A program made the translations under genes and the position numbers. Shown one piece after another: positions 1 to 56,975 of a DNA stretch of 64,000 bases. The DNA is taken from IMG/VR virus record IMGVR_UViG_3300010398_001198, positions 1 through 64,000 of that record; one strand, written 5' to 3'. The DNA is from a virus. Below the pieces are notes generated by a model. The model had not been told where the DNA came from and did not search any database. It saw nothing but the letters and a program-made list of their open reading frames with translations. Each line of letters begins with the position of its first letter. Position 1 is the stretch's first letter.

Positions 1-76
1 CACCTGGCCCGCGGCCATATTCGCACCGTGGAAGTGCCGGTACGGACGCCAACGCGGCTCAGGCATGATTAGATAA

Positions 77-150
77 GGGACAGTTTTAAGTGTTAAGTTT
101 TAAGTTTTAAGTTGTTTCGGACTTAACCCTTAACCCTTAAAACTTGCCCC
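77..150. repeat. Heptamer inverted-array element, copy 1 (TTAAGTT arm / CCCTTAA arm)
   Basis: gggacagttttaagtgttaagttttaagttttaag-ttgtttcggac-ttaacccttaacccttaaaacttgcccc; near-identical to 6571-6654. Confidence 0.9.
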
Positions 151-189
151 GGCCCTCTCTGCGGAGAGGAGCCCGGTTCCGCTTTCGTA

Positions 190-234
190 GCGCCCGCATA
201 CGGTCAAAGGACTTGACCGGCGGGCGCTTTTTTT
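190..234 (+). terminator. Intrinsic terminator-like hairpin with T7 tract
   Basis: gcgcccgc...cggtcaa-agga-cttgaccg-gcgggcgc followed by ttttttt. Confidence 0.7.
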
Positions 235-254
235 GTGCCTGGAGACCGCCATGC

Positions 255-905
255 CTACGACACACGCCGCTTCTTCTTGGCTGGAGCCACGGTCAGCAGC
301 AAGGGCTGGACGGGGATCGGCGGCTTGCGCGTGCCCTTGCGGGAATTACAGGAATGACAGGCGGCAATCACGTTCTGCACAGTATGCGAGCCACCTTTCG
401 ACAGCGGCACGATGTGATCTTGCGTCAACTTCCCTTTGCGGCGTTTGCCACAGTAATAGCAGCGATGGTCTTGGGCCGCCTGGATTTCCAGCCATTGGTC
501 ATGCGTCAGATCATTTACCGGCGCCCTTTTCTTCAGCGCCCGACGCCGGCGGCCTTGAGCACGCGTGGCTTCCCGATGATTGTTCTTCCACTTCTTATCA
601 GCGACCCGGGCTGCCTCTGGATCTTGCTCTCGTTTCTCACGTGCCAGTTGGGCAAAAAGCTCAGGATCCTCCGCATAGATGGCGCGTTTCTTTGCGTTCA
701 CGCGGTCGCGATTCTCAGAGTACCACCGCTGCCACTGTGCCTTGCGCTGGCCCGCATATCGCCCGCGGTATTTCTTGTCGCGTTGTTTTACATGCGACGA
801 GTTCTTTTGGCGACTCGCCTTGGCTCGTTCAGAAAACTTGCTGGGATTGGCGGCATAACGGGCACGTGCACCAGCACGCCTGTCTGGATAGATCTTGGCT
901 GACAC
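255..905 (-). CDS. Free-standing HNH endonuclease (HNH1), antisense to late operon
   Basis: CYYCG...TQDHIVPLSKGGSHTVQNVIAACHSCNSRK; GTG start after GAGGAG. Confidence 0.9.
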   Translation of the reverse strand: MSAKIYPDRRAGARARYAANPSKFSERAKASRQKNSSHVKQRDKKYRGRYAGQRKAQWQRWYSENRDRVNAKKRAIYAEDPELFAQLAREKREQDPEAARVADKKWKNNHREATRAQGRRRRALKKRAPVNDLTHDQWLEIQAAQDHRCYYCGKRRKGKLTQDHIVPLSKGGSHTVQNVIAACHSCNSRKGTRKPPIPVQPLLLTVAPAKKKRRVS

Positions 906-996
906 GATATCTCCTCACTGAGATAGGGGGAAAGACCGGGCTCCCTGTGAGTGAGCACAAGGACTTTGCGGGCGATGATCAGTCGCCACCCGGCAA
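906..996 (-). ncRNA. Structured leader RNA class A, copy 1
   Basis: P1 gccgggt/gcccggt, P2 ggcga/tcgcc, cgcaaagt, P3 ccttgtg-CTCACT-cacaggg, RBS hairpin tatctc-AGTGAG-gagata. Confidence 0.75.
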
Positions 997-1002
997 CAAG
1001 AG

Positions 1003-1011
1003 AGTATAGCA
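1003..1011 (-). promoter_or_regulatory. Extended -10 promoter (TGCTATACT) for HNH1 cassette
   Basis: TGnTATACT on minus strand; GTGCAA 17 nt upstream; same motif heads every antisense cassette. Confidence 0.7.
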
Positions 1012-1051
1012 CAAATATGTCTATTTTGCACTAAGAAAGGCATGATTCAAA

Positions 1052-1642
1052 ATGCCTTGGACTGCTCAGGACGCTGATAGGCACCATAAGGGCTTATCAG
1101 CGAAGCAAAAAAGACAGTGGTCGCATGTGGCCAACAGCCAATTAAAGACCTGTTTGGACCGTGGCGGTTCTCAGGAACACTGCGAAGGACAGGCCATCCG
1201 CGCTGCCAATGCGGCTGTGAACAAGAGTGTCGACGCTGAGAACCTGGCCCTCGTGGTGGAAGCCCGCATTGCCAAAAGTGAGGACGCTGAGCAGCGCCTC
1301 TTTGGGTGGGCCTCCATTGCCGTCATGAAAGATGGGACGCCGCTCCTCGACCTGCAGGGCGATGTCCTGGAGATCGAGGACCTCGCCGAGGCGTGGTACG
1401 CGTACGTCTTAGAGTCAGGCGAATTGAATTTCGTACACAAGGGCGAGTGCCGTGGTCGGATGATTGAGGCCATGGTGTTCACCCCCGAGAAGATTAGCGC
1501 GCTGGGACTGCCTCCTGACTCGCTCCCCCTCGGGGCCTGGGTCGGCTTCCATGTGCCCGATGCCGACGACTACCACCTCGTCAAATCCATGGGCTACCTC
1601 ATGTTCTCCATTGAAGGCTTTGCCGAGCGTGAGGAGGTCTAG
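1052..1642 (+). CDS. XkdF-like putative prohead serine protease with N-terminal extension
   Basis: QRLFGWASIAV...DLQGDVLEIEDLAEAWYAY...NFVHKG...IEAMVFT...AWVGFHV resembles XkdF family; position before scaffold/capsid. Confidence 0.75.
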   Translation: MPWTAQDADRHHKGLSAKQKRQWSHVANSQLKTCLDRGGSQEHCEGQAIRAANAAVNKSVDAENLALVVEARIAKSEDAEQRLFGWASIAVMKDGTPLLDLQGDVLEIEDLAEAWYAYVLESGELNFVHKGECRGRMIEAMVFTPEKISALGLPPDSLPLGAWVGFHVPDADDYHLVKSMGYLMFSIEGFAEREEV

Positions 1643-1644
1643 CC

Positions 1645-3333
1645 ATGCCCACGCGCCTCCGCAAACTCAAAATTACCCGCGTGGCCGTCTGTCAGCAGGG
1701 CGCCAACTACGATGTCGAGAGCGGCGAGGGGGCGCATATCCTGCTCTTTAAGAGTGCGGATGCGGAGGCCGAGGCCCTCGACAAAGCCGAGCGCAGTACG
1801 GCCGGGACCAACGACCTCCCCGACTCTGCCTTCGCCTATATCAGCCCTGGGGGCACAAAGGATGAGGACGGCAAGACTGTCCCTCGCTCCCTGCGCCACC
1901 TGCCATATAAGACTGCCTCAGGGGCTATCGACAAACCGCATTTGCGCAATGCGCTTGCAAGATTAAGCCAGACCGATATCCCGGCGAGTGCCAAAGCCAG
2001 TGCAAAACGCAAGCTCCGCGCTGCCGCCCGGTCAGCCGGCATCGACGTGAGCGACGAGGTCGAGAAGTTTGATGCGCCCATGGGCCTCCATGCCGAGCCC
2101 GACGGCGACGAAACCCCGCCGCTGTCCTATGCCCAGCGCGGCCAGCAGTACGACCTCTGGGAAACCCTCTGGGGCAAATGGCAGTGCCTGTGCGAGACCT
2201 ACTATGCCTGCGTTGGCGACTGCGACGAGGATAACCTGCCCTATCTGCCGATCCTGGTCGAGTCCGTGGGGCAGTTTCAAGACGAGGTCGCGGACCTCAT
2301 CGACGGCCTGGGGCTCACGGCGAAGATGGCCCCCATCCTGGCCGACCTCACTTCGGTGGCGAAAGCCGGGGCGCCCATGGCGGGCCATCGCCTCACGCGC
2401 CTGCAAGACGCTATCGCCCAGCTCCAGCAGATTCTCGAAGAGTGTACGCCCCCAACCATTGACCGCCCTGGGGTCTCTGCCGCCGATGTGCGCAGTATGC
2501 CTGGGGTCATGAAAGGAAGGGCCGCGCGGCGGCCCATTGCCGACACCGTCGCAAAGGAGGACCCGCCTATGGCCACCGCGGTGCGCAAAAATGCCGAGAG
2601 TGACAAGGAACACTGCGACAACTGCGACGACACAGACTGCGACAACCCGGCCCACGACCGTATGAAGAAGGAACTGCTGGTGCACGGGAATGCAGCCCAG
2701 ATGCAGATCGATGCCCTGACCAAACGTGCCCACGAGGCCGAAGACCTGGTGCTCAGCCTGCGCGCTGATCTCGCGAAGAGCACCCAGGAACTCACGGCGC
2801 TCCGCGAAGAACAGCGCATCGCCAAGATGAGCCCTGAGGAGCAGCGCGAGACCCTGCTGGCCGGCATGCCTGAACTGGTGCGCAAGAGCTACCTCGATCA
2901 GGAAGCCCGCCTCGAAATCATCGAAAAGGCCAACCGCGAGTTACACGAGAAAAACGAGCGCCTCGACTATATCGCGAAAACCGCCGAGTTTCGCGCCCTC
3001 GGGCTCACCCCCGATCACTGGCATGTGCTCAAAGCCGTTGAGGGCATCGCCGACGAGAGCGCCCGGACGGAGTTGGTGCGCCTGCTCAAGGCCGCCACCG
3101 AGCAACTGAAAACGTCCAGCCTCTTTGGCGTGCGCGGTGTCGAGGGCCATGGCCCGAGTGGCACGGACAGCAGTGGCGATGCGGAAGGGCAGATTCTCGC
3201 CCTGGCCAAAGCCTACGCGGAAGAGAAGGGTGTGCCGCTGGCCAAGGGCATCGAGGTCATTGCCAAGAGCCATCCCGAGCTCTGGGAACTGAACCAGCGC
3301 GAGAAACGCGCCAAGAATCGGGTAAACACATAA
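1645..3333 (+). CDS. Putative capsid scaffold/head assembly protein
   Basis: N-term LRKLKITRVAVCQQGAN...HILLFKS, C-terminal coiled coil, lies before capsid genes. Confidence 0.65.
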   Translation: MPTRLRKLKITRVAVCQQGANYDVESGEGAHILLFKSADAEAEALDKAERSTAGTNDLPDSAFAYISPGGTKDEDGKTVPRSLRHLPYKTASGAIDKPHLRNALARLSQTDIPASAKASAKRKLRAAARSAGIDVSDEVEKFDAPMGLHAEPDGDETPPLSYAQRGQQYDLWETLWGKWQCLCETYYACVGDCDEDNLPYLPILVESVGQFQDEVADLIDGLGLTAKMAPILADLTSVAKAGAPMAGHRLTRLQDAIAQLQQILEECTPPTIDRPGVSAADVRSMPGVMKGRAARRPIADTVAKEDPPMATAVRKNAESDKEHCDNCDDTDCDNPAHDRMKKELLVHGNAAQMQIDALTKRAHEAEDLVLSLRADLAKSTQELTALREEQRIAKMSPEEQRETLLAGMPELVRKSYLDQEARLEIIEKANRELHEKNERLDYIAKTAEFRALGLTPDHWHVLKAVEGIADESARTELVRLLKAATEQLKTSSLFGVRGVEGHGPSGTDSSGDAEGQILALAKAYAEEKGVPLAKGIEVIAKSHPELWELNQREKRAKNRVNT

Positions 3334-3430
3334 GTTTCAAGGGTTAAGGGTTAAGTTTTAAGGCTCGGAGTCAGACACAGAACAGCCTCAGTCTCCCAGC
3401 TCTCCCACTTAATACTTAATACTTAAATCT
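3332..3430. repeat. Heptamer inverted-array element, copy 2
   Basis: tttcaagggttaagggttaagttttaag-spacer-cttaatacttaatacttaaa immediately after stop codon. Confidence 0.85.
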
Positions 3431-3490
3431 AAGCGTTTCTTCCCGCCTCGCGTGTCCAGAACGGCGTGGCAGGCGGGGAAGGAGGGTCCG

Positions 3491-3892
3491 ATGCCCCATA
3501 TTGCGGTTTATGACGACTCCTTTCGCAGTACCACCGATATGCGCACCAAGCAATTTGCCCCGGTGAAACTCGCCGCCACCAAAGACTGGATTACCGAGTG
3601 TGCGGCCGCCACGGATGACGTGTACGGCTTGCAGCAGGGCCGCCCCAATGTGGGCGAGGCCGGACGCATCGCCATTGCCGGACGCTGGACTGCCCTGGTG
3701 GATGGCTCCGGCACGGCCATTGCCATCGGGGACTTCCTGGGACCCAACGCCGCCGGCACCATGCTGGTGAAAAAGAGCACCGCCGATAACTCGATCTGCG
3801 CCCGGGCACTCGATGTCTGCACGATTAGCGGCGGCAAAATTGATGTCAATTTGTTTGGCGGCATCGGCGCACGGTTCCGGGCGGCGGCGTAA
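3491..3892 (+). CDS. Capsid cement/decoration protein (DUF2190-like)
   Basis: ~130 aa, PVKL...GLQQG.P..GEAGRIAIAG...AIAIGDFL pattern, directly upstream of MCP; ATG after GGAGG. Confidence 0.7.
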   Translation: MPHIAVYDDSFRSTTDMRTKQFAPVKLAATKDWITECAAATDDVYGLQQGRPNVGEAGRIAIAGRWTALVDGSGTAIAIGDFLGPNAAGTMLVKKSTADNSICARALDVCTISGGKIDVNLFGGIGARFRAAA

Positions 3893-3993
3893 GCCAAGGC
3901 CCGACGTGCGACGGGCCTGCAACCCTCATCTCTGGCACAGCCTGCGTCATGACGTGACACAGGAATAGCCGTCAGTTCAGAAAGGAGCTGCCC

Positions 3994-4935
3994 TTGGCAG
4001 AGAGCGCATTAAGGGACGTCTATGTTGATATATTACTTACAGAAATATCTATAGGTTATTCCAACCCAGATTACATAGCACCACTCATTGCTCCGGTGGT
4101 GCCGGTGCGCTATCCCACCGGGTTCATTCCGCAGTACATGCAGAGTGACTGGTTCCGCAACAACGCCAACCGGCGGGCGACCGGCACGCTGAGTCGGCGC
4201 GGCTCCTTCAACCTGGGGACCGACACCTACGCCTCGAAGCGCGACAGCTTCGGCTTCGAACTGGCCGATGAAGTGCGCGACGCCACCATGGAACCCTACA
4301 ACATGGACCGCGACGGCACGCTGTTTGCCACCGATAAAGTCCTCATGGCGCAGGAGATGGACTTCGCCACCAACCTGTTCACGGCGGGCGTGTGGGTCGA
4401 TGCCGCCGGCTATGTGCAGTGGAACGATTATGGGGCCTCAACCCCCCTGCTCCTGGTGACCCAGGCCCTCGATAACATCGAAGGCCGCATCGGGCGCGAG
4501 GGCAACACCATGATCCTCGGCAAGCAGGTCTTCACCGTGCTGCGCTGGCACCCCGACTTGCTCGACACCATCAAGTACACCCAGATGGCCATCGTCACCG
4601 AGCAAATCATGCAGAGCCTCTTCGGCGTGGACCGCATCCTCATCGGCCGCGGCATCTATACCGCCAGCCCGGAAGGCACGGCGGAAGCGTCCGTCGTCTA
4701 CCAGCGCATTTGGGGCAAGCATGTGCTGTTTCTCTATAACCCGCCGAGCCCGAGCCTGATTACCCCGGCGGCGATCTACAACTTCACGTGGCAAAGGGTT
4801 CCGTCCGCAAACTCGTACATGCGCCGATTCCGTGAAGAAAGTCGCGAGGTCGACGTCCTGGAGAGTAACGGCTACCACGACTATCATGTGACGTCTCAAC
4901 GGTCTGCGGAGTTTTATGCGAATATAATCGCATGA
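3994..4935 (+). CDS. Major capsid protein
   Basis: 313 aa, DILLTEISIGYSNPDYIAPLIAPVVPV motif typical of a gpE-like MCP family; TTG start after AAGGAG. Confidence 0.8.
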   Translation: MAESALRDVYVDILLTEISIGYSNPDYIAPLIAPVVPVRYPTGFIPQYMQSDWFRNNANRRATGTLSRRGSFNLGTDTYASKRDSFGFELADEVRDATMEPYNMDRDGTLFATDKVLMAQEMDFATNLFTAGVWVDAAGYVQWNDYGASTPLLLVTQALDNIEGRIGREGNTMILGKQVFTVLRWHPDLLDTIKYTQMAIVTEQIMQSLFGVDRILIGRGIYTASPEGTAEASVVYQRIWGKHVLFLYNPPSPSLITPAAIYNFTWQRVPSANSYMRRFREESREVDVLESNGYHDYHVTSQRSAEFYANIIA

Positions 4936-4951
4936 TGAATTTGTACCCTTT

Positions 4952-5644
4952 TTAGAAAAGCCGCATCTGTTGAGGGACAGCGCGATTCCCTTTACTGGAA
5001 TTGCACCAGGTATGGGCCAGCACCGCATTGCGATAACTGTGTTCCGAGCCCGGCTGACTCACGGGAATGATGTGATCACGTGAAGCATCCTGGAAACGGC
5101 GGACCCGCGTATGACAAATACCGCATATGCCCTTGTCACGGATAAAGAGCACGGCGATATCAACCTCTTCAATGTATGGGATACCCTTCTCCAGCGCCCG
5201 GCGCTTGTGCTGATACTCCGTGACCTTATTGCGGTTCAACTGCCGCCACAATTTCCGTTTCAGCGCATAGTACGCTTTCTTCTTCAAGCGGCTCCGGCGC
5301 TCGCGCAGCCGACAGAGGACGCGGTTGGCTTCGCGGTAAAGGGCGGCGGCGGCCAGGACCTGTGCCTTATGCAGGGTTTTCCAGCGCTGCTGCCGGGCCT
5401 TGAATTGTTCAGGATGATCCTTGCCCCACTGCATCGAGCGCGCATTGATCTTGTCTTTGTTCCTGACGTGATAACCAGCTTTGTAGGCTTTGCGCTTGGC
5501 AACACGCTCAGGCTTGGACTCACGTTCTTTGACACACTGCTTGCAGTAGGGCGACAGCTTGTCATAACGGCTGTTATCAACAAAAAACTCGGCGTACAGC
5601 TTGGACTTCTTACACTTAGGACAGCGTTTACGCGGTTCGTCCAT
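4952..5644 (-). CDS. Free-standing HNH endonuclease (HNH2)
   Basis: N-term CPKC...YCKQC zinc ribbon, C-term CGIC...RDHIIPVS...NAVLAHTWCNSSKGN; start placed at ATG 5644 after GGGAGG. Confidence 0.9.
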   Translation of the reverse strand: MDEPRKRCPKCKKSKLYAEFFVDNSRYDKLSPYCKQCVKERESKPERVAKRKAYKAGYHVRNKDKINARSMQWGKDHPEQFKARQQRWKTLHKAQVLAAAALYREANRVLCRLRERRSRLKKKAYYALKRKLWRQLNRNKVTEYQHKRRALEKGIPYIEEVDIAVLFIRDKGICGICHTRVRRFQDASRDHIIPVSQPGSEHSYRNAVLAHTWCNSSKGNRAVPQQMRLF

Positions 5645-5740
5645 GCGGCCTCCCATACGGCCAGAGGTGAGTGGCTTGGGCTCAAGACCTGTATGGGCAG
5701 GTCTCAACTTGCGCGTCAGCGTCCCAACGACCCAAGCTCT
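5645..5740 (-). ncRNA. Structured leader RNA class A, copy 2
   Basis: P1 gcttgggt/gcccaagc, P2 cgttgg-GACG-ctgacg, cgcaagt, P3 tgagacctg-CCCATA-caggtcttg, RBS hairpin ggcc-gTATGGGa-ggcc. Confidence 0.75.
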
Positions 5741-5743
5741 ATA

Positions 5744-5752
5744 AGTATAACA
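5744..5752 (-). promoter_or_regulatory. Extended -10 promoter (TGTTATACT) for HNH2 cassette
   Basis: Motif at same position relative to leader as other cassettes. Confidence 0.7.
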
Positions 5753-5765
5753 AATTCAGAGAGTT

Positions 5766-6566
5766 ATGTCAATGCTTGAAGGCTCTGATCTCCCCGATGA
5801 CACTGGCGCCGATGCCGCCCCCGAGGCGGTGCTGGCGATCCTTGAGCGGCTGACGCCGCAGCAGCAGAGTGCCCTGGCGCTCCTCGTGGAGCAGGACGGG
5901 CAGGGCTGCGGCCTGTCGACCCAGATGTGTTCCTCGCTCGTCCAACGGGATCTCCTGGTCAAAGCGGTGGACCCGCTCACCGATGGCCCGCGCGTGTGCA
6001 CCAAGGGCTGTGGCCATGCATGGTACGACATCCCGGCGGCGGTCCAGACGGCGTATGCCACCTGGGCGGCGCAGTGGGAGGAGGACGGGGCGCCGGTGAC
6101 CACCGCCGTGCCTGCTCCGCCCCCGCCTCCAGCCAGGCCCCTGGCGACGCGCCGTGAGATGGGGCCGAGTCATTGGACAAGGTTCACCTTGCCGGGCCTG
6201 GGCTATTTCACCTACAAGGGCACGAACTACGACCGTGGCCAGCTCCTGACGCTGACGGGCAGCCCGCGCGATGAGCAATTAGAACGCCTGGGCTATGTCT
6301 ACCCGGTGCCCAAAGGCGAGACCTACCGCCAGGCCCAGTGCGGGTCCTGCGGCATGTGGTTCTTGAATGAAGAGTTCCGCGACGCGCATGGACGCTTGCG
6401 CCATCGTCACCGCTTCGAAGGCGACGACCTGGATGTAGCGGCGGGCATGGCGGGCCCTGCAGGGGGGGCCGCCTTGCGCGATGTGACGGGGGATGCCGAG
6501 GAGCGCCGCATGCAGCAGCAGTATCCGCTGCATCTGGAGCGGACGAAAGCAACGTTAGAAGGCTAG
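5766..6566 (+). CDS. Hypothetical head-region protein
   Basis: Co-oriented 266-aa ORF in late operon with CGSCG motif. Confidence 0.6.
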   Translation: MSMLEGSDLPDDTGADAAPEAVLAILERLTPQQQSALALLVEQDGQGCGLSTQMCSSLVQRDLLVKAVDPLTDGPRVCTKGCGHAWYDIPAAVQTAYATWAAQWEEDGAPVTTAVPAPPPPPARPLATRREMGPSHWTRFTLPGLGYFTYKGTNYDRGQLLTLTGSPRDEQLERLGYVYPVPKGETYRQAQCGSCGMWFLNEEFRDAHGRLRHRHRFEGDDLDVAAGMAGPAGGAALRDVTGDAEERRMQQQYPLHLERTKATLEG

Positions 6567-6570
6567 GGAC

Positions 6571-6654
6571 GGGGACAGTTTTAAGTTTTAAGTTTTAAGT
6601 TTTAAGTCGTTTCGGACCTTAAACCTTAACCCTTAACCCTTAAAACTTGGCCCC
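6571..6654. repeat. Heptamer inverted-array element, copy 3
   Basis: ggggacag(ttttaag)x4-tcgtttcggac-cttaaaccttaacccttaacccttaaaacttggcccc. Confidence 0.9.
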
Positions 6655-6677
6655 TCCTGAGGAAGGAAGGAGGGCCT

Positions 6678-7121
6678 ATGTTTCAACGTGTGACCGTCGT
6701 GCAGGAAGGGCTCAAGCTGCCCCGCACCGCGACCATCATTCCACAGGCGGGCGTCAAATCGCTCTATACGATTAGCGGCGTCATCCGCATTCGCCAACTC
6801 TACGGCGTCGTCACCACCGTCATTGCCGGCGGGGCGAACAACACCAAGTTCCAGTTCAAGCCCACCGGCCAGACCGCCATTGACCTCTGCGCGGTGGGCG
6901 ATATTGGCACCACCCCGCTGGCGGTGGGGCAACTGATTGGCGTCGTTTTTCCGCCCGCGACCGCGCTGGCCATGGGCTGGGGCGTCCAGGATACGACGCA
7001 GGACTTTCTCATTGGCCCCGGCACCATTGATCTCAACTGTGTGGCGGCGGCGGGGACCGGCGCCTTCCGGTTCTTGCTGGCCTATGACGGGGAACCGAAC
7101 AGCTTTGTGACGCTGGCTTAG
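6678..7121 (+). CDS. Hypothetical beta-rich virion protein
   Basis: 147-aa ORF with RBS GGAGGG in late operon. Confidence 0.6.
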   Translation: MFQRVTVVQEGLKLPRTATIIPQAGVKSLYTISGVIRIRQLYGVVTTVIAGGANNTKFQFKPTGQTAIDLCAVGDIGTTPLAVGQLIGVVFPPATALAMGWGVQDTTQDFLIGPGTIDLNCVAAAGTGAFRFLLAYDGEPNSFVTLA

Positions 7122-7351
7122 GGCTTAGCGCTGGTCGGACAGGCGCCTTGAAAGCCGGCCGTCGAGTGCACGGTCGCGCCGGAGGGACACTGCACCACAA
7201 AGGTCTGGCCCGCGACATTGCGAATGGCGGTGGGACAGCGCGGCTTAAAGCGTGCAATGGCGTGGGTATTGGCCCCCGTGGGACTGCCAGCCATAAACGT
7301 GGTCGTGGTGTGGGTCGACGCCCCGGTGGGGCAGTTCGGGAGCATAGCCAT
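7118..7351 (-). CDS. Small antisense protein with CPT/SPT-GA repeats (77 aa)
   Basis: GGAGG RBS, TGCTATGCT extended -10 at 7390-7398, exactly fills the gap between + genes. Confidence 0.6.
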   Translation of the reverse strand: MAMLPNCPTGASTHTTTTFMAGSPTGANTHAIARFKPRCPTAIRNVAGQTFVVQCPSGATVHSTAGFQGACPTSAKP

Positions 7352-7423
7352 ACGCGACCTCCGGTCTGTGGGAGAGATCTGAGGTCCGCAGCATAGCAGG
7401 CCGGACCCTGAGAGACAAGGAGA

Positions 7424-7963
7424 GTGATGCCCCCACGCCCAGAGCCCTATCGCATCGGCTTCTTTTACCTGGGAGAGGCGCCGGACGCCCTCCCGCACAA
7501 GGAGATCCCTATGCTCAATCCCCAAACCAACCCCTGGTGGGGCACCTTTCTCGTGACCCACGGCAGTGACTCCGAAGAAGAAAAGGCGTTTCTCGGCTAT
7601 CTCACCAGCAAGGCGATTGATCCGGGGAGCGATCCGAGCACCCTGGACGCCGCCTATACCGACTTTCACGCCTGGCTGACCGACTCGTACGCCCACGATG
7701 CCACGGCCAGTGAAGCCGCCGTGGCGAGCGCGACCCCGCAGGGCATTGCCGAGGCCCGGCAGGTCGAACTCACGGCCTATGCGGTGCCACGGGCCAGCCA
7801 TGCCGATCCGGTGCTGCAAAAGCCCGGCCAGGCCGCGACCCGCCCGCCCGAGCTGCGCGTCGAGCCACCGGCACCGCCCACCGAGACGCCAGCGACGAGT
7901 AGCGAAAGTAGCAGCCCCGAACCGCGCTATGGCACGCGGCGGCGCAGTGAGGGGGAGGCATGA
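7424..7963 (+). CDS. Hypothetical protein, Pro/Ala-rich C-terminus
   Basis: RBS AAGGAG; alternative start at 7511. Confidence 0.55.
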   Translation: MMPPRPEPYRIGFFYLGEAPDALPHKEIPMLNPQTNPWWGTFLVTHGSDSEEEKAFLGYLTSKAIDPGSDPSTLDAAYTDFHAWLTDSYAHDATASEAAVASATPQGIAEARQVELTAYAVPRASHADPVLQKPGQAATRPPELRVEPPAPPTETPATSSESSSPEPRYGTRRRSEGEA

Positions 7964-8193
7964 ACCCGGCCAGTGAACGGATGCTCACCCATATGACCTA
8001 TGACCATCTGCCGGCGCATCTCCAGGCGGTGAGTCAACCCGTGTGTGATCTCGCCTGGCTGATGGCCCGGACCCTAGACAGTGCCGATCCTCTGGTGGGC
8101 GCGGAAGTCACGACCGGATTACGCCGGCTCCTGGAAGCGAAGGATTGTTTTGTCCGCGCCCGGGTATGCCTGGGGCATGGCAACCAGGGCTAA
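7960..8193 (+). CDS. Small conserved phage helical protein (HLPxHLQ...LRRLLEAKDCFVRA type)
   Basis: Recognisable widespread phage motif; overlapping start/stop coupling. Confidence 0.7.
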   Translation: MNPASERMLTHMTYDHLPAHLQAVSQPVCDLAWLMARTLDSADPLVGAEVTTGLRRLLEAKDCFVRARVCLGHGNQG

Positions 8194-8285
8194 TCTATGG
8201 CCCAGCAAGCACTTCGAGCCTTTTGGCGTCTCGTTCACTGAATGAGCGCAAGGAGAACGCCATCTCTTACACGTACGCGGGAAAG

Positions 8286-8906
8286 TTAGAGAGGACGATA
8301 GTACCCCCGGCCAGGGTTCAGATTATGCTTGCGGAGGATGCGCCAGATGGTGGCTTGAGATACGCCAAAACGTTGAGCGAGTGACACTTGACCATAGCCA
8401 TTGGGGTCATAGAGACGACAAATCTCTTGGTGGTCAGCCTGCGTCAACTTTGTATTACTGGGGAGTCGTCTGCGTCCTTTGCGAATAGAGTCCTGCACAT
8501 TGTCGCGCTGCGTACCCAGCCAGAGATGCGCTGGGTTGACACAGGCAGGATTATCGCCATCAGGGCAATTATGGCAGACATACATCTCAGGTGGAACGGA
8601 GCCATGGGTAAGGATATAGGCGGCTCGATGGGCAGGCGTGTTCACGCCCTGGAGTTGGAAATGTCCATAACCATCTTTGTCTTTGTGCCCTTGCCAGATC
8701 CAGCATGCTTCCGGCGTGGTCTTCAGGACTCTTGTCCAGAACAGATCTGCACCGCTGATGACTCGCAGAGCAGGTTTGCCACGACGCGCTCGCCCCTCGA
8801 AGCGATTTTTGCAGAGGGTCGAACAATAGCGGGCGGTCTCTGCACGATAGGGATGGACGAGAAAGGTATTGCCGCATTCCTCACAGATACAGGATACACG
8901 AATCAT
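8286..8906 (-). CDS. Free-standing HNH endonuclease (HNH3; I-HmuI-like HNH + C-terminal HTH)
   Basis: CEECG...YCSTLC, CWIWQG...GYG...AHRAAY...VCHNC...DNPACVNPAHLWLGTQRDN, QVSLAQRFGVSQATIWRI; ATG 8906 after GAGGAG. Confidence 0.92.
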   Translation of the reverse strand: MIRVSCICEECGNTFLVHPYRAETARYCSTLCKNRFEGRARRGKPALRVISGADLFWTRVLKTTPEACWIWQGHKDKDGYGHFQLQGVNTPAHRAAYILTHGSVPPEMYVCHNCPDGDNPACVNPAHLWLGTQRDNVQDSIRKGRRRLPSNTKLTQADHQEICRLYDPNGYGQVSLAQRFGVSQATIWRILRKHNLNPGRGYYRPL

Positions 8907-9002
8907 GCGATGTCTCCTCAACAGACAGTGAAGGGGTACCCGGGCTCTCTCCAGGTTGAGGCTGGAGGGACTTGCGAGCAGCCGTCGCCGCTACCCAGGC
9001 TT
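8907..9002 (-). ncRNA. Structured leader RNA class A, copy 3
   Basis: P1 cctgggt/gcccggg, P2 agcggc-GACG-gctgct, cgcaagt, P3 ctccag-CCTCAAC-ctggag, RBS hairpin tgtct-GTTGAGG-agaca. Confidence 0.75.
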
Positions 9003-9005
9003 ATG

Positions 9006-9014
9006 AGTATAGCA
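9006..9014 (-). promoter_or_regulatory. Extended -10 promoter (TGCTATACT) for HNH3 cassette
   Basis: Motif position conserved among cassettes. Confidence 0.7.
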
Positions 9015-9044
9015 TAGATTTCAAAGGGTTAGAAGGAAAAAACG

Positions 9045-9485
9045 GTGAGTTACACCTACGCCGGCAACCCAGCAGCATCCAAGGTCGATGAGGTCCATTA
9101 CAGATTGGGCGATGTGGACGCTTCGAATCCTATAAGCACCGACGAGGAGTGCGCCTTTGCCCTGTGCGAGCACGGCGGCAATACCTATCTGGCCGCCGCC
9201 GCGCTTGCAGAGACGAAGGGCATGGAGTTTCTCTACAAGCCCTCGATCCGGCGAGGTGATCGCTGGGTGACGTATACCGACCGGGCCAATCACTTCCTCA
9301 CCCTGGCCCGCCAGCTCCGCAATAACGCGTCCATGGCCACCACGAATATCTATGTGGGCGGCCAGAGCGAGAGTGAGAAAAAAGCCGACCGCCATAGCCT
9401 CGACCAGGTGCAGCCGTATATGCGGACGACGCTCCATCAGACCCGCCCATGGTACAGTTGGGAGGATATGGAGCGTGAGCCATGA
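9045..9485 (+). CDS. Putative head-tail adaptor
   Basis: SYTYAGNP...DEVHYRLGDVD...DEEC..AL pattern typical of head-tail connector proteins. Confidence 0.6.
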   Translation: MSYTYAGNPAASKVDEVHYRLGDVDASNPISTDEECAFALCEHGGNTYLAAAALAETKGMEFLYKPSIRRGDRWVTYTDRANHFLTLARQLRNNASMATTNIYVGGQSESEKKADRHSLDQVQPYMRTTLHQTRPWYSWEDMEREP

Positions 9486-10333
9486 TGCCCGTCAGTACCC
9501 TGACGCCCAGCCTGGTGCGGGACACCTATCTCCTCGGCATTGATCTCGGGAGTGCCTGGCAGGGGGCAACCGGCGACCAGGCGATTGCGCGCCTGCTCTT
9601 TGCCCAGGTGGCCCGCGCCGAAGCCCTCATGAACATCCACTTTCACCGCTTCCACGTGCTCACGGCCCCGGACCCCACCATGGTACTCGGGCAAGACTAT
9701 GACTTCCTCGGGCTCCCCATCCCCTATACGCCCCCGGAGCCGGAGGCGACCCACTATCAGCTCACCCTGCACTTTCACGATGTGCAGGCGATTACGCGCG
9801 TGCGCCTCATGACCGGGATGGATACGCAAGTGCCGCCGCAGCCGGTGTGGCTGACGCTCGCCCTCACGGCCCTCGTCTTTTCCTCGTACGATGAACGTCT
9901 GTACATCCCCGTAGACCTGGCGCCATCTCCCCCCGGCGGCGAGATCTGGGCCGTCGACTATCTCTGCGGGCTGGAGGCCTTACCCCCGGAGGTGGTGGAA
10001 TGGTGCGCCCTGCGGACCGCCATGCAAATTCTCAGTATCACGGGCTCCGGGCGCGATGTGACGCATGGCACCAGTGGCGAAATGCTCATTCAGGACGGCA
10101 TCGAAGAAAGCGTGCGCTACGGCAATAATGCCCAGTACGGCGGCATCTATGCCGGGCCGATTAAGATCCTCCAGGGCCAACTCGACGATCTCGATCTCGT
10201 GCGCCTGCGCTTTCGCTATCAGAATACGGCCGGTGACCACAGCCAGATCCCAGCAGACGCCTTGCTACCCAGTCAGCCGTACGAGCAGTCCGTCTGTACG
10301 CCGCGCTCCCCCCTGCTGGTGACGGCACCCTGA
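9482..10333 (+). CDS. Putative neck/head-completion protein
   Basis: TPSLVRDTYLLGIDL N-terminus resembles neck proteins of large myophages; position. Confidence 0.5.
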   Translation: MMPVSTLTPSLVRDTYLLGIDLGSAWQGATGDQAIARLLFAQVARAEALMNIHFHRFHVLTAPDPTMVLGQDYDFLGLPIPYTPPEPEATHYQLTLHFHDVQAITRVRLMTGMDTQVPPQPVWLTLALTALVFSSYDERLYIPVDLAPSPPGGEIWAVDYLCGLEALPPEVVEWCALRTAMQILSITGSGRDVTHGTSGEMLIQDGIEESVRYGNNAQYGGIYAGPIKILQGQLDDLDLVRLRFRYQNTAGDHSQIPADALLPSQPYEQSVCTPRSPLLVTAP

Positions 10334-10344
10334 GGGAGCCCGCC

Positions 10345-10857
10345 ATGGCACTCACTCCCCAGCAACTCCAGCAACTCCAGGCCGATATTGCCGCCGACCC
10401 GGTGCTCTCGCAGGTCCCCCACACCTCGGACGGCGCGCTCGAAGTGGCGGACGCCTACAACGCCCAGGCCAGTCCCGTCTTCTGGGTCTGGAAAACCAGC
10501 CTCCTGGAGCAAGACGTGTATGAGACCACGAGCCCGGACAACACAACATGGTCATGGGCGACCTATAAAGCCCAGACTGTGCAAGATCGGGATTCCTGGG
10601 CGCGCATGTTTAATCCGGGGCTCGTCAATCCGTCCCTCCGGCAAACGCGTGACGGCTGGACCGCCATCTTTGGGGGCCAGGGCGCTTCGCTGCAGCAGGT
10701 CAATTTTCTCCTGGCGCTCGCCCGACGTCCGGCGCGGCGGATCGAGGCGCTGCTGTATGTGCCCACCCTCGGCACGGGCACACCCGCCAGCCCGGCCAAT
10801 ATGGGCTATGAGGGGACCATCAGCGGGTCCGACGTGGAGCAAGCATGGGTCAGCTAA
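10345..10857 (+). CDS. Hypothetical virion-associated protein (paralog of 44829..45422)
   Basis: WVWKTSL...TWSWATYKAQT...NPSLRQTRDGW.AIFGGQGAS shared with 44829..45422. Confidence 0.75.
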   Translation: MALTPQQLQQLQADIAADPVLSQVPHTSDGALEVADAYNAQASPVFWVWKTSLLEQDVYETTSPDNTTWSWATYKAQTVQDRDSWARMFNPGLVNPSLRQTRDGWTAIFGGQGASLQQVNFLLALARRPARRIEALLYVPTLGTGTPASPANMGYEGTISGSDVEQAWVS

Positions 10858-11606
10858 CCACGCTCCCACCCACCCACACGGTGCAGATTCACCTCGATGG
10901 CTACTGCCATACCTGCAAGCTGTGGCACCGCCATCCCCCGCTCTCGCCCACGGCGTTTTCCGAGGCCCTGTGGGACTGGCATGCCAAACACATGGGCCAT
11001 GAGGTGGAACTCCTCTCCCCGCGCCGGCGGCTGCCCCGGCGCTTCCGTGACTGGCTCTGGCAGCGGCTGGGCGTCGCCCCCTGGTGGTTGGACTACCGCG
11101 AGAACACCAATTTCAAACTGAGCTTTACCGCCGCGACCGTCATCACCTGTACCCTCGCCTCCCTGGCTTCCTCTGGCACCTTTGTGGCCGGGCGTGAAGC
11201 CGCCGGGGTGGACAACAGTAGCGCCCGCAATATTGACTCGGAAATTACTGCCAAGCTGACGACCGGCACCAGCCCGACCGTGGATACGGAACTGCGCGTC
11301 TATGGCTATCAGGCGCTCAACCCCGATACACCGCTCTACCCCGATACCATTAGCGGCACGAACGCCGCGGTTACCCTGACCAGCACCTATCAACTGAGTG
11401 GCGGCTTTCTCCTCCTGGGCTCCTCGGCAGTCTCGGCGACCTCGAGTATCGGCTACCCCATCAAGTGTCTGTCCACGGCGCAAGCGTGGGGCAAGGAGCC
11501 CAAACGCTGGGGCCTGTATATCACCCATAACACCGCCGTGGCGCTGCATGCCACCGGGACGAACCACGTACTCACGTATACCTCGGCATTCCTTACAGAT
11601 ACATAA
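10845..11606 (+). CDS. Hypothetical protein: His/Cys-rich N-terminus + beta-rich C-terminal domain
   Basis: Co-oriented ORF; CHTC...WH...HAKHMGH. Confidence 0.65.
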   Translation: MGQLTTLPPTHTVQIHLDGYCHTCKLWHRHPPLSPTAFSEALWDWHAKHMGHEVELLSPRRRLPRRFRDWLWQRLGVAPWWLDYRENTNFKLSFTAATVITCTLASLASSGTFVAGREAAGVDNSSARNIDSEITAKLTTGTSPTVDTELRVYGYQALNPDTPLYPDTISGTNAAVTLTSTYQLSGGFLLLGSSAVSATSSIGYPIKCLSTAQAWGKEPKRWGLYITHNTAVALHATGTNHVLTYTSAFLTDT

Positions 11607-11618
11607 TGAAAGGAACTC

Positions 11619-12494
11619 ATGCCATACACGCAAGGTGTCCGCAGTCTCGCCTATGGGGCGCCGGTGAATTGGGATGCGCCGCTCAACCGGGGGCTCCAGA
11701 ACTGGTGGAAGGTGCTGCCAGGCCGGATCGGTGCGCCCACCTGGCTCGATCTCACCGGACGGATCGCCTTGCCACTGACCGGCATGTCCCCGCCCAGCAC
11801 GACGCAGGGCTTTGGCGCCACGCGGCGACCGGGGGGCCTCAGCGAACTGCGCTTTAATGGCACGACGTCGCTGGGCGCGCTCGGCAACTCGTCACTCTAT
11901 ACCAGCAGCAGTGACACGGCGCACACCTTTGCCTGCTGGTTCCTGCAATCGAGCAGCGTCGCCGAGGACGAAATGCGCATCGTCACCTGGTGCCGGGCCA
12001 CCGGCTCGACCGGCTGGGGCCTCTACACGGATACCTACAATGCCAACCCCAACCGCCTGGCCGGGCTCTACAAGACCACGGCCAATGCCCTGAGCACGTG
12101 CTACAGCACGACCACCATTGCGCTCAACACGTGGTACTTTGGCACCTGGGTGATCAGCGGCACCACCGGGACCCTGTATCTCAATGCGCACCAGGAAGGC
12201 ACCGTCAGCGATGTCGATCCCAGTGTGAGTTTTACCTCTGGTGCGTTTGCCTCCGAACTGGGACATCTCAACGGCAATGCCACCACCTACTGGCCCGGGG
12301 CACTCGATGAGGTGCGGCTGTATAACCGGGCGCTGTCGGCTGCTGACGTGGCGGCCCTGTACCTGGCCGCGCTCCAGGGCTGGCCGCAAGAACTGAGCTG
12401 GCAACTCTGGCCGCCGCTCGGGCTGCGGACGGAGACGCCGCCGCAACGTGTCTGGAGCCTGACGCAGGCCCTCCAGCGAGCGATCAATTGGTAG
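11619..12494 (+). CDS. LamG/concanavalin-A-like lectin domain protein
   Basis: HTFACWF...WYFGTWV..GTTGTLYLNA...WPGALDEVRLYNRALSAADV. Confidence 0.85.
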   Translation: MPYTQGVRSLAYGAPVNWDAPLNRGLQNWWKVLPGRIGAPTWLDLTGRIALPLTGMSPPSTTQGFGATRRPGGLSELRFNGTTSLGALGNSSLYTSSSDTAHTFACWFLQSSSVAEDEMRIVTWCRATGSTGWGLYTDTYNANPNRLAGLYKTTANALSTCYSTTTIALNTWYFGTWVISGTTGTLYLNAHQEGTVSDVDPSVSFTSGAFASELGHLNGNATTYWPGALDEVRLYNRALSAADVAALYLAALQGWPQELSWQLWPPLGLRTETPPQRVWSLTQALQRAINW

Positions 12495-16233: not shown

Positions 16234-16333
16234 AGTTTTAAGGGTTAAGGGTTAAGTTTTAAGGTCAGAGGCGGGTATAGATATGCACCATCCTCCGAAC
16301 CTTCCCCCACTTAAAACTTAATCCTTAAAACTT
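16234..16333. repeat. Heptamer inverted-array element, copy 4
   Basis: agttttaagggttaagggttaagttttaag-core with GCACCATC-cttaaaacttaatccttaaaact. Confidence 0.88.
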
Positions 16334-24376: not shown

Positions 24377-25261
24377 TTAAGGAATGAGAAAGAGTTGATG
24401 GGGGCCGGGGGCACGCTCTTTCTCTATCACCATAGTTGGTCGTGGTAAATGTTTCCAGCTTCGGCCGCTACACAGGGCTTGGGTGGCTGGATATGGTAAA
24501 TCCATGATGGTGACGATCTTGATGATGGGCCAGCCCTCAGCATATTTGGCTAAGACTTCAATAGCCGTTTGTTCAGTCATTTTGCTATGACCATTGCGTT
24601 CACCAAAACTGTGACGCTTATCGCGTATCGAATCGTCAAGATTGTCTTTTTGGGTTCCGCTATGGATATGCCAAGGATTACAACAAGACGTGTAATGACA
24701 ATAGTGCGCGACTTTCGTTTCAGGAGACAACGAACATCCATTGCACAGCTCATAGGCGGCACGATGGGTATAGATTTGTTTCTTATCAACAATAATTTTC
24801 CCGTACCCATTCAAGTCAAGCGTCCCTGTCCATGGCATACAACAATAGGGACACCATTCTTCATGGTCGCAACGCTGGACACGTGTCCAGAAATCACGCA
24901 GTGCTTTCCATCTTTTGTCCCGACTCGTATAGATCGTTGCGCATTTCCGCGAACAAAATCGGTCTCCTGTATTCGATTGTTGACGGACAGACAGAATGAA
25001 CTCTTCCCCACATTGCGGGCATATGCCCGTTTCTTCTGGCAAACGCATAGCGACGTACTTACAAACCTTCGAACAAAATTGCGCGGTTTCTTGACGATAG
25101 GCTCTGACCGTAAAAGGTTGATGGCACCCTTGGCATTCCAAAGTGACAGACCGTCGCCGCGCCACACCTTTACAGGCATTCGAGCAAAACTGCGCATTTT
25201 TATGTTTTGCGGGGACCTCAAAAGGATGCGTACACGAGGGGCAGATGCGCGTAATGGACAT
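24377..25261 (-). CDS. Free-standing HNH endonuclease (HNH4): three zinc ribbons + HNH + HTH
   Basis: CxxC...FCSxxC x3, CMPWTG..LNGYG...THRAAYEL...AHYCHYTSCCNPWHIHSGTQKDN; ATG 25261 after AGGAG. Confidence 0.92.
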   Translation of the reverse strand: MSITRICPSCTHPFEVPAKHKNAQFCSNACKGVARRRSVTLECQGCHQPFTVRAYRQETAQFCSKVCKYVAMRLPEETGICPQCGEEFILSVRQQSNTGDRFCSRKCATIYTSRDKRWKALRDFWTRVQRCDHEEWCPYCCMPWTGTLDLNGYGKIIVDKKQIYTHRAAYELCNGCSLSPETKVAHYCHYTSCCNPWHIHSGTQKDNLDDSIRDKRHSFGERNGHSKMTEQTAIEVLAKYAEGWPIIKIVTIMDLPYPATQALCSGRSWKHLPRPTMVIEKERAPGPHQLFLIP

Positions 25262-25362
25262 GATGTATCTCCTGTAGATACCCCTGAGCAATGGAGGAAA
25301 CGTGCACGGCAACCTACCCAGGTAGTAGGGTTTTCGGGTCGCGATTCCCTAGCCGTACACAA
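25262..25362 (-). ncRNA. Structured leader RNA class B, copy 2
   Basis: P1 gtgtacggc/gccgtgcac, ggg-aatcgcga-ccc, cctac-taCCTGg-gtagg, RBS hairpin gtatct-aCAGG-agatac; TGTTATACT at 25369-25377. Confidence 0.6.
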
Positions 25363-55862: not shown

Positions 55863-56540
55863 TTAGTGGGTGTGTTGACACTCTCTGCCCATGGCTCGAT
55901 AGGCAGCCTCTTGTGCCGCCTGCTTCATGCGATCAATATCAAAGGAGTACGCAAATCCATGTTCTGTGGTCCATTCCAGCTTGAAGAAATCCACCTGCTC
56001 CAGCCTATAGAGACAGCCAAGAATTGTTGGTGTTTCTTCAACGGTATATGCCCGTAAGATTGCAAAGGATATCCAGCCATAACAGCGCAATGGCTCAATG
56101 GTCCAGGCATTTGCATGCTCGAACAGCGCTAATGCTGTAAAGGCTAGAGATGGCGTGTCCATGCGAGGGAGCGCATGAATACTTAGGATATGCAGCCAGG
56201 TTAAGGACACAGGGCATGTATAGACAAAGCCACCATCATCTGGTGCTGTTCTCTCCTCTTGGGCTTCTGGTAATTGGTGCGTATGTTTCTCGCCCCAAAA
56301 TCGCCAATCTCCCTTACTTACGAGATATGCTCGAAACTCCTCGACCCCCTTCGTATTCTTCCGGCTATTACACGAGTTGCACGCAGGTACGAGGTTGGCT
56401 AACTCATCGCCACCCCCGTTGTTGCGTGCGTCTTGATGCTCAATCGTGAAGTCGTCAAAGGGATTCATCTGCTTGCCACAGTACCAACAGTGTCCATTGG
56501 TCTTCGCCCAGACCTGCGGGCGATATTGCTTGTAACTCAT
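55863..56540 (-). CDS. HNH domain fused to possible winged-helix domain
   Basis: CWYCG...TIEHQDARNNGGGDELANLVPACNSCNSRK; start placed at ATG 56540. Confidence 0.75.
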   Translation of the reverse strand: MSYKQYRPQVWAKTNGHCWYCGKQMNPFDDFTIEHQDARNNGGGDELANLVPACNSCNSRKNTKGVEEFRAYLVSKGDWRFWGEKHTHQLPEAQEERTAPDDGGFVYTCPVSLTWLHILSIHALPRMDTPSLAFTALALFEHANAWTIEPLRCYGWISFAILRAYTVEETPTILGCLYRLEQVDFFKLEWTTEHGFAYSFDIDRMKQAAQEAAYRAMGRECQHTH

Positions 56541-56729
56541 GCTCTGCCCTCTCTGCGTGCAAAACTGCCTACGATTGAGTAGGCTTATGTGACATTGCAA
56601 GACGTTCAATGAGAATAAGCAATGTCTAAATGCATGAGAGGATTGTAGCATTTTCAAATGTAACCTGCAACAAATCTCTTGCAATAAAGCATATCTTCCG
56701 GCATACTCTCTTCTAGGAGGCCATGCATT

Positions 56730-56975
56730 ATGACGTTGGGTGAACGCATACGAGCCCGTCGAAAACGTCTCGGATTGAGTCAGGGCAAGCTGGCGCGTCG
56801 GGCAGACATTGATCAGGGGCAACTCTCCCGCATTGAGTCGGGTGAGACGACCAATCCTGGCATTCAGCCCTTGACCGCGATTGCGCGTGCCCTCGACTGT
56901 TCGCTGGACTACCTTGTGGACCGCTATGATGAGGACCATGTTGACCCCTCATGTGCGATGGCTGCCTCTACCTAA
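56730..56975 (+). CDS. XRE-family HTH regulator (Cro/CI-like)
   Basis: LGERIRARRKRLGLSQGKLARRADIDQGQLSRIESG; TTGCAA-N17-CATACT promoter upstream. Confidence 0.92.
   Translation: MTLGERIRARRKRLGLSQGKLARRADIDQGQLSRIESGETTNPGIQPLTAIARALDCSLDYLVDRYDEDHVDPSCAMAAST

Follow-up and report, generated by a model that had tools for sequence, protein, structure and literature searches.

Several homing-endonuclease genes of T-even phages, namely I-TevI, I-TevII, I-TevIII and segB, together with Aeh1 mobE, are silenced by RNA structures that sequester the ribosome-binding site (RBS) (PMC2988022). Read-through transcripts alone contain the inhibitory hairpins; shorter mRNAs, which can be translated, arise from a late or middle promoter situated within the hairpin (PMC2988022). 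Free-standing homing endonucleases are widespread in phage genomes and little is known about how the dose of their products is controlled beyond the T-even phages. Here we describe a conserved leader RNA that precedes three HNH endonuclease genes in the first 64 kb (64,000 nucleotides (nt), referred to below as the window) of a 122,663-bp IMG/VR virus record, IMGVR_UViG_3300010398_001198. Judged by its pairing pattern and its relatives, the leader is a real, uncatalogued family of cis-regulatory RNA. We think it likely that it acts as a portable translational lock in cis, in which the Shine-Dalgarno (SD) sequence sits in a hairpin stem that is clamped by a kissing loop.

Results

A shared leader architecture in front of three HNH genes

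All three HNH genes are encoded on the minus strand, opposite in direction to the structural genes around them, which are on the plus strand and include an XkdF-like protease at 1052-1642. Their leaders, at 903-994 (copy 1, HNH1), 5642-5737 (copy 2, HNH2) and 8904-9000 (copy 3, HNH3), are 92-97 nt long and have in common a three-way junction and an SD hairpin, which we call P4. The elements follow one another in a fixed order: P1, ending in GGGU and closing with (A)GCCC, P2, the junction strand CGCAA(A)G (J2/3), P3, the return strand of P1, a C/U-rich linker, and P4 with the SD. The parts of each copy are as follows.

935-994 (-), copy 1 three-way-junction core: P1 988-994/935-941; P2 971-987, loop CUGAUCA 976-982; J2/3 CGCAAAG 964-970; P3 942-963, loop CUCACU 950-955
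908-925 (-), copy 1 SD hairpin P4: UAUCUC/GAGAUA, loop AGUGAG 914-919, the exact complement of the P3 loop
5674-5737 (-), copy 2 three-way-junction core: P1 5730-5737/5674-5681; P2 5714-5729, tetraloop GACG 5720-5723; J2/3 CGCAAG 5708-5713; P3 5682-5707, loop CCCAUA 5692-5697
5647-5662 (-), copy 2 SD hairpin P4: GGCC/GGCC, GUAUGGG 5652-5658 complementing CCCAUAC 5691-5697; SD GGGAGG
8938-9000 (-), copy 3 three-way-junction core: P1 8993-9000/8938-8945; P2 8977-8992, tetraloop GACG 8983-8986; J2/3 CGCAAG 8971-8976; P3 8946-8970, loop CCUCAAC 8955-8961
8912-8926 (-), copy 3 SD hairpin P4: GUCU/AGAC, loop GUUGAGG 8916-8922 complementing the P3 loop; SD GAGGAG

A preliminary description of the window had proposed that the three leaders share one architecture and that P3 and the RBS hairpin have exactly complementary loops. 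Indeed, we find the described elements base for base on the minus strand, and the complementarity can be read in all three copies, as CUCACU/AGUGAG, CCCAUAC/GUAUGGG and CCUCAAC/GUUGAGG in copies 1, 2 and 3, respectively. The SD of copy 1, GAGGAG, is spread over the P4 loop and the 3' strand of the hairpin, and in each of the three copies this 3' strand carries SD sequence. Minimum-free-energy folding (RNAfold) gave the identical three-way junction in all three copies, and the 122.7-kb record as a whole contains exactly three copies of the leader.

Covariation of the helices and of the P3-P4 kiss

To collect relatives, IMG/VR, GTDB genomes and JGI metagenomes were scanned with patterns, and the matches were filtered by reading and with the covariance models R1 to R3. 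Pattern scans and models together gave about 50 distinct relatives, mostly from soil metagenomes, with three from contigs of Chloroflexota or Anaerolineae metagenome-assembled genomes (MAGs). The window copies themselves score 52.8 bits (R1) and 64.9 bits (R2) for copy 1, 24 and 37 bits for copy 2, and 28.3 and 43.3 bits for copy 3.

Covariation was assessed on 46 distinct full-length leaders aligned to model R3, with 500 shuffles as the control. Standard pairs fill 93.8% of the paired cells compared to 69.2% after shuffling, 30 of the 31 pairs are changed on both sides (21.7 shuffled), and the covariation score is 0.608 as against 0.177; sliding the partner columns by 1-3 gives at most 0.09. 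None of the 500 shuffles attained the observed values. Every helix covaries, with paired fractions of 95.6% for P1, 97.7% for P2, 97.5% for P3, 88.1% for the kiss and 87.6% for P4. Changes on both sides were seen at all 5 pairs of the P4 stem and at 6 of the 6 positions of the kissing helix, where one pair, for example, occurs as AU in 11 copies, UA in 11, CG in 5 and GC in 5. The co-changing contact between loop and RBS that had been suspected from three copies therefore holds across the family, and the covariance model and covariation check proposed at that stage recovered relatives whose covariation lies far above the shuffles.

A string-matching test that is independent of the alignment gave the same picture. 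An exact complement to the full P3 loop was present in the tail of the same leader for 37 of 50 copies, as compared to 81 of 2376 in a cross-copy control, and these 50 copies hold 44 different loop sequences. Of the copies that lack an exact complement, most can still pair with G.U included. Where the P3 loop had been parsed correctly, the distance from the end of the complement to the start codon is 7-10 nt in most copies. In the majority the complement also coincides exactly with the loop of a 4-6-bp hairpin (type CACCU[loop]AGGUG), which divides the SD between this loop and the 3' strand. By nearest-neighbour estimate, P4 alone has a median stability of -4.4 kcal/mol and the loop-loop duplex of -6.9 kcal/mol. 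Taken at the level of sequence, the three-way junction and both contacts, that is the SD hairpin and the loop-loop kiss, are maintained by compensatory change.

The junction and known RNA families

Because the scan patterns fix GGGT, CGCAAGT and GAGCCC and would inflate invariance, conservation was re-examined on 22 pattern-free copies. J2/3 fits C(GNRA)G in 19 of these, as CGCAAG in 13, CGUAAG in 2, CGGAAG in 2, CGAAAG in 1 and CGCGAG in 1, and the other three carry 1-2-nt insertions or a deletion. N thus takes all four bases, and R varies as well. Elsewhere, J2/3 reads CGCAAAG in copy 1, and CGACAAG and CGAGCAAG in the copies of a sister phage that is described below. A junction CGCAA(A)GU had been called invariant; what stands is a conserved junction of the form C(GNRA)G, with variable N and R rather than strict invariance. 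Outside the helices, the GNRA bases are the only unpaired ones that are conserved, and the top of P1, which adjoins the GNRA-type turn, has near-invariant G-C, G-C and U.G pairs. From these features, the turn and the P1-top pairs look like a structural clamp and not a ligand pocket. A further contact had been suggested between a GAC at P2 and the GU(C/U) that follows CGCAA. This can be set aside: the U/C in question belongs to the covarying first pair of P3 (UA 31, CG 10), and GAC is not a feature of P2 across the family.

Comparison with Rfam 15 at gathering score gave no match in the whole 64-kb window, consistent with the initial impression that the RNA belongs to no recognised family. With permissive thresholds, Rfam returned noise only for copies 1 and 3 and for eight small homologous loci, with E values of 4-8; the SAM, DLEU2_6, ctRNA_pGA1, mir-9195 and COG2908 matches in these scans were rejected as such. 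The cobalamin riboswitch (RF00174) matched neither the window at gathering score nor the leaders in the permissive scans. For int-alpA (RF02996; gathering score 35.8 bits) there were zero matches at E <= 10 in the 122.7-kb record and none on the leaders that were scanned under permissive thresholds, and the model did not match at intA-alpA of E. coli CP4-57 either. Full-text literature searches found no paper that describes such a leader. A 2023 catalogue of more than 10,000 unnamed candidate phage RNAs could silently include the family (PMC10690425).

These results bear on two readings of the leader as a sensing or catalytic RNA. In a small-molecule or ion riboswitch, the junction would be an aptamer whose ligand stabilises or breaks the kiss, in the fashion of cobalamin riboswitches. 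The layout of a 5' domain, an RBS hairpin and a kissing loop does resemble a translational riboswitch, and the junction is highly conserved; however, a GNRA in which N may be any of the four bases is too little for a specific pocket, no Rfam riboswitch matched, and the nucleases, replication loader, membrane protein and unknown proteins encoded behind the leader have no metabolic theme. We therefore consider a riboswitch very improbable. The leader could also be a self-cleaving ribozyme, or an RNase processing site, that trims or destroys the 5' end of the mRNA. Its compact junction fold and its place at the start of mobile-element transcripts would suit such a role, and a double-strand-specific RNase could be drawn to the coaxial stack of about 16 bp (P2-kiss-P2') that two leaders would form if joined through their P2 loops. 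Against this, models for hammerhead, twister, twister-sister, pistol, hatchet and HDV-like ribozymes gave no match at any threshold tried, and there is no set of conserved unpaired bases that resembles a catalytic core, which leaves cleavage or processing hardly credible. The ligand sensor and the self-cleaving RNA that were offered in the preliminary description are thus both disfavoured.

A self-complementary P2 loop

The 7-nt P2 loop consists of a C followed by a self-complementary hexamer. Its inner tetramer is GAUC, GGCC, AGCU or GUAC, and the variants GAUU and GGUC stay paired through G.U. Symmetric positions of the loop are complementary in 91.5% of cases compared to 80% after shuffling, a value that none of 500 shuffles reached; position 3/6 is GC in 31 copies and AU in 7, and position 4/5 is AU in 25 and GC in 15. 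Hexamers that self-pair by Watson-Crick pairs only would form duplexes of -4.8 to -9.1 kcal/mol, and the G.U variants duplexes of -0.6 to -0.8 kcal/mol. The exceptions to self-complementarity are UUGCUA, with one U.U, and the non-palindromic GACG tetraloop, which occurs in four copies (copies 2 and 3 of the window, L180b and L219). We found no recurrent second copy of the loop word in the same mRNA. Since no partner recurs in cis, the only consistent partner of the P2 loop is another molecule, and a loop that is self-complementary and lacks a cis partner makes tip-to-tip pairing of two leaders probable.

Such pairing could make the leader a switch that senses concentration. Two leaders would pair through their P2 loops, maybe with the GNRA of one on the P1 of the other, and dimer and monomer would differ in translational state, so that output per gene copy would fall, or rise, as the number of messages or genome copies climbs. 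The preserved self-complementarity of the P2 loop through its different tetramers and G.U variants, the missing cis partner, the stability of the Watson-Crick self-duplexes, and a GGCC tetraloop in the sister-phage orthologue of copy 3 all speak for this switch. However, the GACG and UUGCUA loops are not self-complementary, many of the loops come from patterns that fix the loop C, U and A and leave only the inner four bases free, and from sequence we could derive no coupling of P2 pairing to whether the P3-P4 kiss is formed. We put the chances of such a switch at somewhat below even. A more specific form, in which the leader is a natural mRNA homodimer that sets the strength of the lock and serves as a dosage sensor, perhaps with the GNRA turn on the P1 G-C pairs of the partner, is a tentative proposal that we hold with correspondingly less confidence. 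To our knowledge, dosage control by an mRNA homodimer has not been described as a cis-regulatory principle for bacterial or phage mRNAs.

The same palindromes might instead matter in DNA, with the P2 inverted repeat and its palindromic centre (TGATCA, TAGCTA, TGGCCA) acting as an operator, or as a methylation or restriction site, at about +20, with control over the promoter. The loop centres are indeed classical DNA palindromes of 4-6 bp that contain GATC, AGCT or GGCC. We see only a slim chance of this, as the stem sequences covary freely rather than being conserved, GAUU and GGUC keep pairing only as RNA, the symmetry axis of the hexamer is offset from that of the stem, and close relatives carry different palindromes.

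Distribution of the leader

A pattern-free search with model R2 of one Chloroflexota class, to which one of the MAGs belongs, gave matches in 16 of 66 genomes, at 21 loci. In a sample of 151 genomes from the whole phylum, matches came solely from genomes that the class-level search had already found. By these searches, the range of the family comprises a single Chloroflexota class together with soil phages, for which that class presumably supplies the hosts. DNA of the window at 200-9200 is present in seven soil metagenome DNA runs, and no RNA run is listed as containing it. A megablast of window positions 1-12000 against the GenBank 'phages' collection gave no match.

This distribution would be expected if the leader were the operator of a lineage-specific factor, a host (Chloroflexota) or phage RNA-binding protein that reads GGU/GCC and C(GNRA)G, stabilises or opens the lock, and so times expression in the course of infection or induction. 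The family was found in one class and in soil phages only (among the genomes searched), the conserved letters cluster on one face of the junction, and GNRA-fold loops are known sites of protein binding, as in lambda N-boxB. No candidate protein is linked to the leader, though; the downstream proteins are too diverse for autoregulation; and tertiary folding alone explains the conserved letters equally well. We consider a protein operator unlikely.

The first loose pattern scan returned mostly chance matches in coding DNA, and among the matches listed only L007, L065 and L072 are real. Chance matches discarded by reading or by model are L119, L121, L122, L124, L127, L130, L131, L134, L141, L143, L147-L150 and L076.

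Two groups of divergent loci were also seen. The first is a variant subclass in which P1 is 4 bp (GGGU/AGCC), P3 is long and one more hairpin lies upstream. This subclass precedes DnaD-like replication genes and a weak GIY-YIG-like gene and keeps a kiss of 6-8 nt onto the SD region.

8668-8758 (-) of L120: variant leader
456-548 (+) of L123: variant leader
5170-5263 (+) of L125: variant leader

The second group has an intact three-way junction with no matching SD-hairpin loop or obvious open reading frame downstream. These may be decaying or recombined cassettes.

2759-2822 (+) of L181: junction only
1501-1563 (-) of L209: junction only
1501-1564 (+) of L223: junction only

Genes behind the leader

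The window copies precede the following genes, the third of which encodes an I-HmuI-like HNH_3 protein with a C-terminal helix-turn-helix (HTH).

255-905 (-): HNH1, 216 amino acids, GUG start 905-903; Pfam HNH_5 9.4e-15, HNH 2.5e-13
4952-5644 (-): HNH2, 230 amino acids, AUG 5644-5642; Pfam HNH 8.2e-08
8286-8906 (-): HNH3, 206 amino acids, AUG 8906-8904; Pfam HNH_3 7.1e-06, HTH_7 1e-3

Downstream genes were surveyed for 29 pattern-derived copies from phage and metagenome contigs, including the three MAG contigs. The gene behind about 19 of them is an HNH gene, and these HNH genes fall into three or more lineages (11 in an HNH/HNH_5 cluster, 7 in an HNH_3 cluster, and 1 of phrog_374 type). The others are followed by a weak GIY-YIG-like gene, two DnaD-like genes (replication initiator or helicase loader), a gene for a small membrane zinc-ribbon protein, and several genes that carry no annotation. 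The proteins behind the copies in Chloroflexota genomes are mostly unannotated and of 170-370 amino acids, and one family of them has a conserved C-terminal GRPxGTG region that is HTH-like in look. Protein family A from behind these copies had no Pfam, PHROG or PDB-sequence match and gave no usable lead in the ESM Atlas. On two of the Chloroflexota MAG contigs, a tyrosine integrase gene lies just upstream of the unit of leader and gene (2286-3038 (-) of L210 and 2484-3053 (-) of L216), which suggests that the bacterial copies lie in integrated mobile elements.

Conversely, relatives of HNH1 in IMG/VR have the leader in none of 18 loci, even with filters off, so that the RNA does not travel with the HNH1 protein family as such. 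A syntenic sister phage with 65-80% nucleotide identity (L228, IMGVR_UViG_3300010398_000034) has leaders at 6512-6582 (-) and 9842-9909 (-), in the slots of copies 2 and 3. In the slot of copy 2, the gene behind the leader is an HNH only 28% identical to HNH2, next to a flanking capsid-like protein that is 84% identical, and the P2, P3 and P4 loop sequences of the leader differ from those of the window copy. The orthologue of copy 3 shows compensatory changes in P1, P2 and P3, besides its GGCC tetraloop in P2. The varied downstream genes, the leader-less HNH1 relatives and the swap in the sister phage together indicate that the leader is an independent module, attached mainly, not exclusively, to selfish nuclease genes. 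The mobile module that had been proposed from two HNH types thus extends to three HNH lineages and to GIY-YIG-like, DnaD-like, membrane-protein and unknown genes, and with non-nuclease genes also behind the leader, the accompanying idea that it licenses a toxic nuclease is too narrow.

The sister phage also has a 1.16-kb extra insert at 3278-4439, where the window has just 3891-3933.

Promoter-like sites

In most phage copies, an extended -10 site TGnTATACT lies 7-12 nt upstream of the GGGU. The predicted sites of the window are listed here.

1003-1011 (-): copy 1, extended -10 promoter-like site, TGc TATACT, ending 9 nt before the first base of P1
5744-5772 (-): copy 2, promoter-like site, TTGACA-17-TATACT with TG upstream, 11/12 matches
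9006-9014 (-): copy 3, extended -10 promoter-like site, TGc TATACT

A promoter scan of window positions 1-10000, which include all three leaders, found no promoter-like site within any leader. From the position of these sites, the leader RNA probably starts at or just before P1.

Other leaders and repeats in the window

Two other genes with HNH domains, at 55863-56939 (-) and 58102-58764 (+), have short, apparently unstructured leaders, and therefore the lock is not universal for nucleases in this genome. A weak HNH_3-like fourth gene at 24377-25261 (-) is preceded by a leader at 25262-25362 (-) and the same TGTTATACT-type promoter. This leader is three-armed but different, with a P1 of 9 bp and two hairpins, followed by the SD region. 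Models R1 and R2 did not match it and the match between loop and SD there is 4 bases only; it may represent a second leader family.

Tandem TTAAGGG heptads (TTAAGGGTTAAGGGTTAAG and near copies) occur between genes on both strands, with 8 matches as compared to 0 in 100 shuffles. The first three sites were checked and lie just beyond gene ends. The heptads may be a phage-specific regulatory or terminator-associated repeat. They occur at these positions, among others.

122-140 (-): TTAAGGG heptads
3337-3362 (+): TTAAGGG heptads
6618-6643 (-): TTAAGGG heptads
16238-16263 (+): TTAAGGG heptads
63329-63347 (-): TTAAGGG heptads

Discussion

The anatomy of the leader points to a lock that is OFF by default, with no sign of an ON trigger. 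In the mechanism that we propose, each copy would be a self-contained expression cassette, made up of a promoter, a leader of about 85-99 nt and a gene, with transcription starting at or just before P1. P1, P2 and P3 would form a three-way junction whose geometry is set by the near-invariant pairs at the top of P1 and by the C(GNRA)G strand, the adenines of which probably dock in the P1 minor groove in an A-minor type of contact. The junction could then serve as a rigid scaffold that aims the 6-7-nt P3 loop at the 6-8-nt P4 loop. With all loop bases paired, the SD, which lies 7-10 nt from the start codon, would be caught in the stem as well as beneath the stacked loop-loop helix, and translation would be low. 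We infer a default OFF state because P4 alone is weak and the loop-loop helix would add about -6.9 kcal/mol. Ribosomes may use the single-stranded, C/U-rich linker as a standby site. More speculatively, the P2 loops of two leaders might pair tip to tip, in which case the lock would depend on the concentration of the message. Its own promoter and lock would let the module travel with selfish genes, mostly HNH homing endonucleases and also other mobile-element genes, and keep these at a low dose wherever they land.

Several points weigh against this translational lock. Repression is deduced from base pairing only, and it is conceivable that the kissing complex exposes the start site instead of concealing it. 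A purely constitutive lock leaves the self-complementarity of the P2 loop unaccounted for, and the four copies with a GACG tetraloop depart from the palindromic pattern. The folding energies of the three window copies as single sequences are unremarkable, with z-scores of -0.8 to -1.1. Finally, the fixed-letter patterns behind much of the set inflate apparent invariance, and alignment to a covariance model leans towards the structure that was modelled. We nonetheless regard the conclusion on covariation as safe, because the effect is large and the independent string-matching test agrees.

The leader looks like a portable answer to the problem of nuclease dose, combining a promoter with an RNA lock whose two loops evolve through matched mutations. 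Its interest for RNA biology would lie in a compact RNA of about 65-95 nt whose family shows unusually clean covariation, in a fully paired intramolecular kiss onto the RBS, in a GNRA-type junction and in a self-complementary loop that may make mRNAs dimerise. If the homodimer reading were true, the leader would be a built-in sensor of message or gene dosage that could hold nuclease output flat during phage genome replication. In annotation, soil phages and Chloroflexota mobile elements can be searched with the covariance model for selfish-gene cassettes that are autonomous, and the family links the window phage to a Chloroflexota host class. The programmable pair of loops could also serve synthetic biology as an orthogonal translational lock.

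Parts of this design recall other regulatory RNAs. Cobalamin riboswitches (Rfam RF00174) form a kissing loop between L5 and the L13 regulatory hairpin, and the leader similarly brings a loop of a structured 5' domain onto the loop of an RBS hairpin. This is an analogy of mechanism only: the riboswitch has a B12-binding core with a four-way junction, whereas the leader has no such core, no sign of a ligand pocket and no cobalamin-linked genes. The dimerisation initiation site (SL1/DIS) of human immunodeficiency virus 1 (HIV-1) is a hairpin loop with a self-complementary hexamer flanked by unpaired bases, and the P2-loop variants of the leader likewise keep self-complementarity while their letters change. 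The HIV-1 element, however, lies in a packaged viral genome, whereas the leader lies in the 5' region of phage and mobile-element mRNAs, where dimerisation would be our interpretation of the loop. Antisense kissing complexes control plasmid copy number in ColE1 (RNA I/RNA II) and R1 (CopA/CopT). These too use fully paired loop-loop helices of 6-7 nt between two hairpins as the regulatory contact, but they form in trans between two transcripts, in contrast to the predicted P3-P4 kiss, which is intramolecular. The int-alpA RNA (RF02996) is, like the leader, an orphan candidate cis-regulatory RNA, in its case near prophage integrase and regulator genes, and some of the Chloroflexota leaders follow directly behind an integrase gene.

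The closest documented precedent is that of the RBS-sequestering hairpins of the T-even phages. In both cases the genes are phage homing-endonuclease genes; in the T-even phages RNA structure covers an SD located about 8 nt ahead of the start codon and makes translation inefficient, and the same outcome is predicted here. The T-even hairpins are simple and specific to their genes, whereas here one conserved RNA family is common to unrelated genes. Likewise, the T-even promoter is embedded in the structure, whereas the promoter-like site of the leader lies 7-12 nt upstream of P1, outside the structure. Thus the kind of control, translational occlusion of homing-endonuclease genes, is already known, and what is new here is the RNA family and its possible dimerisation feature.

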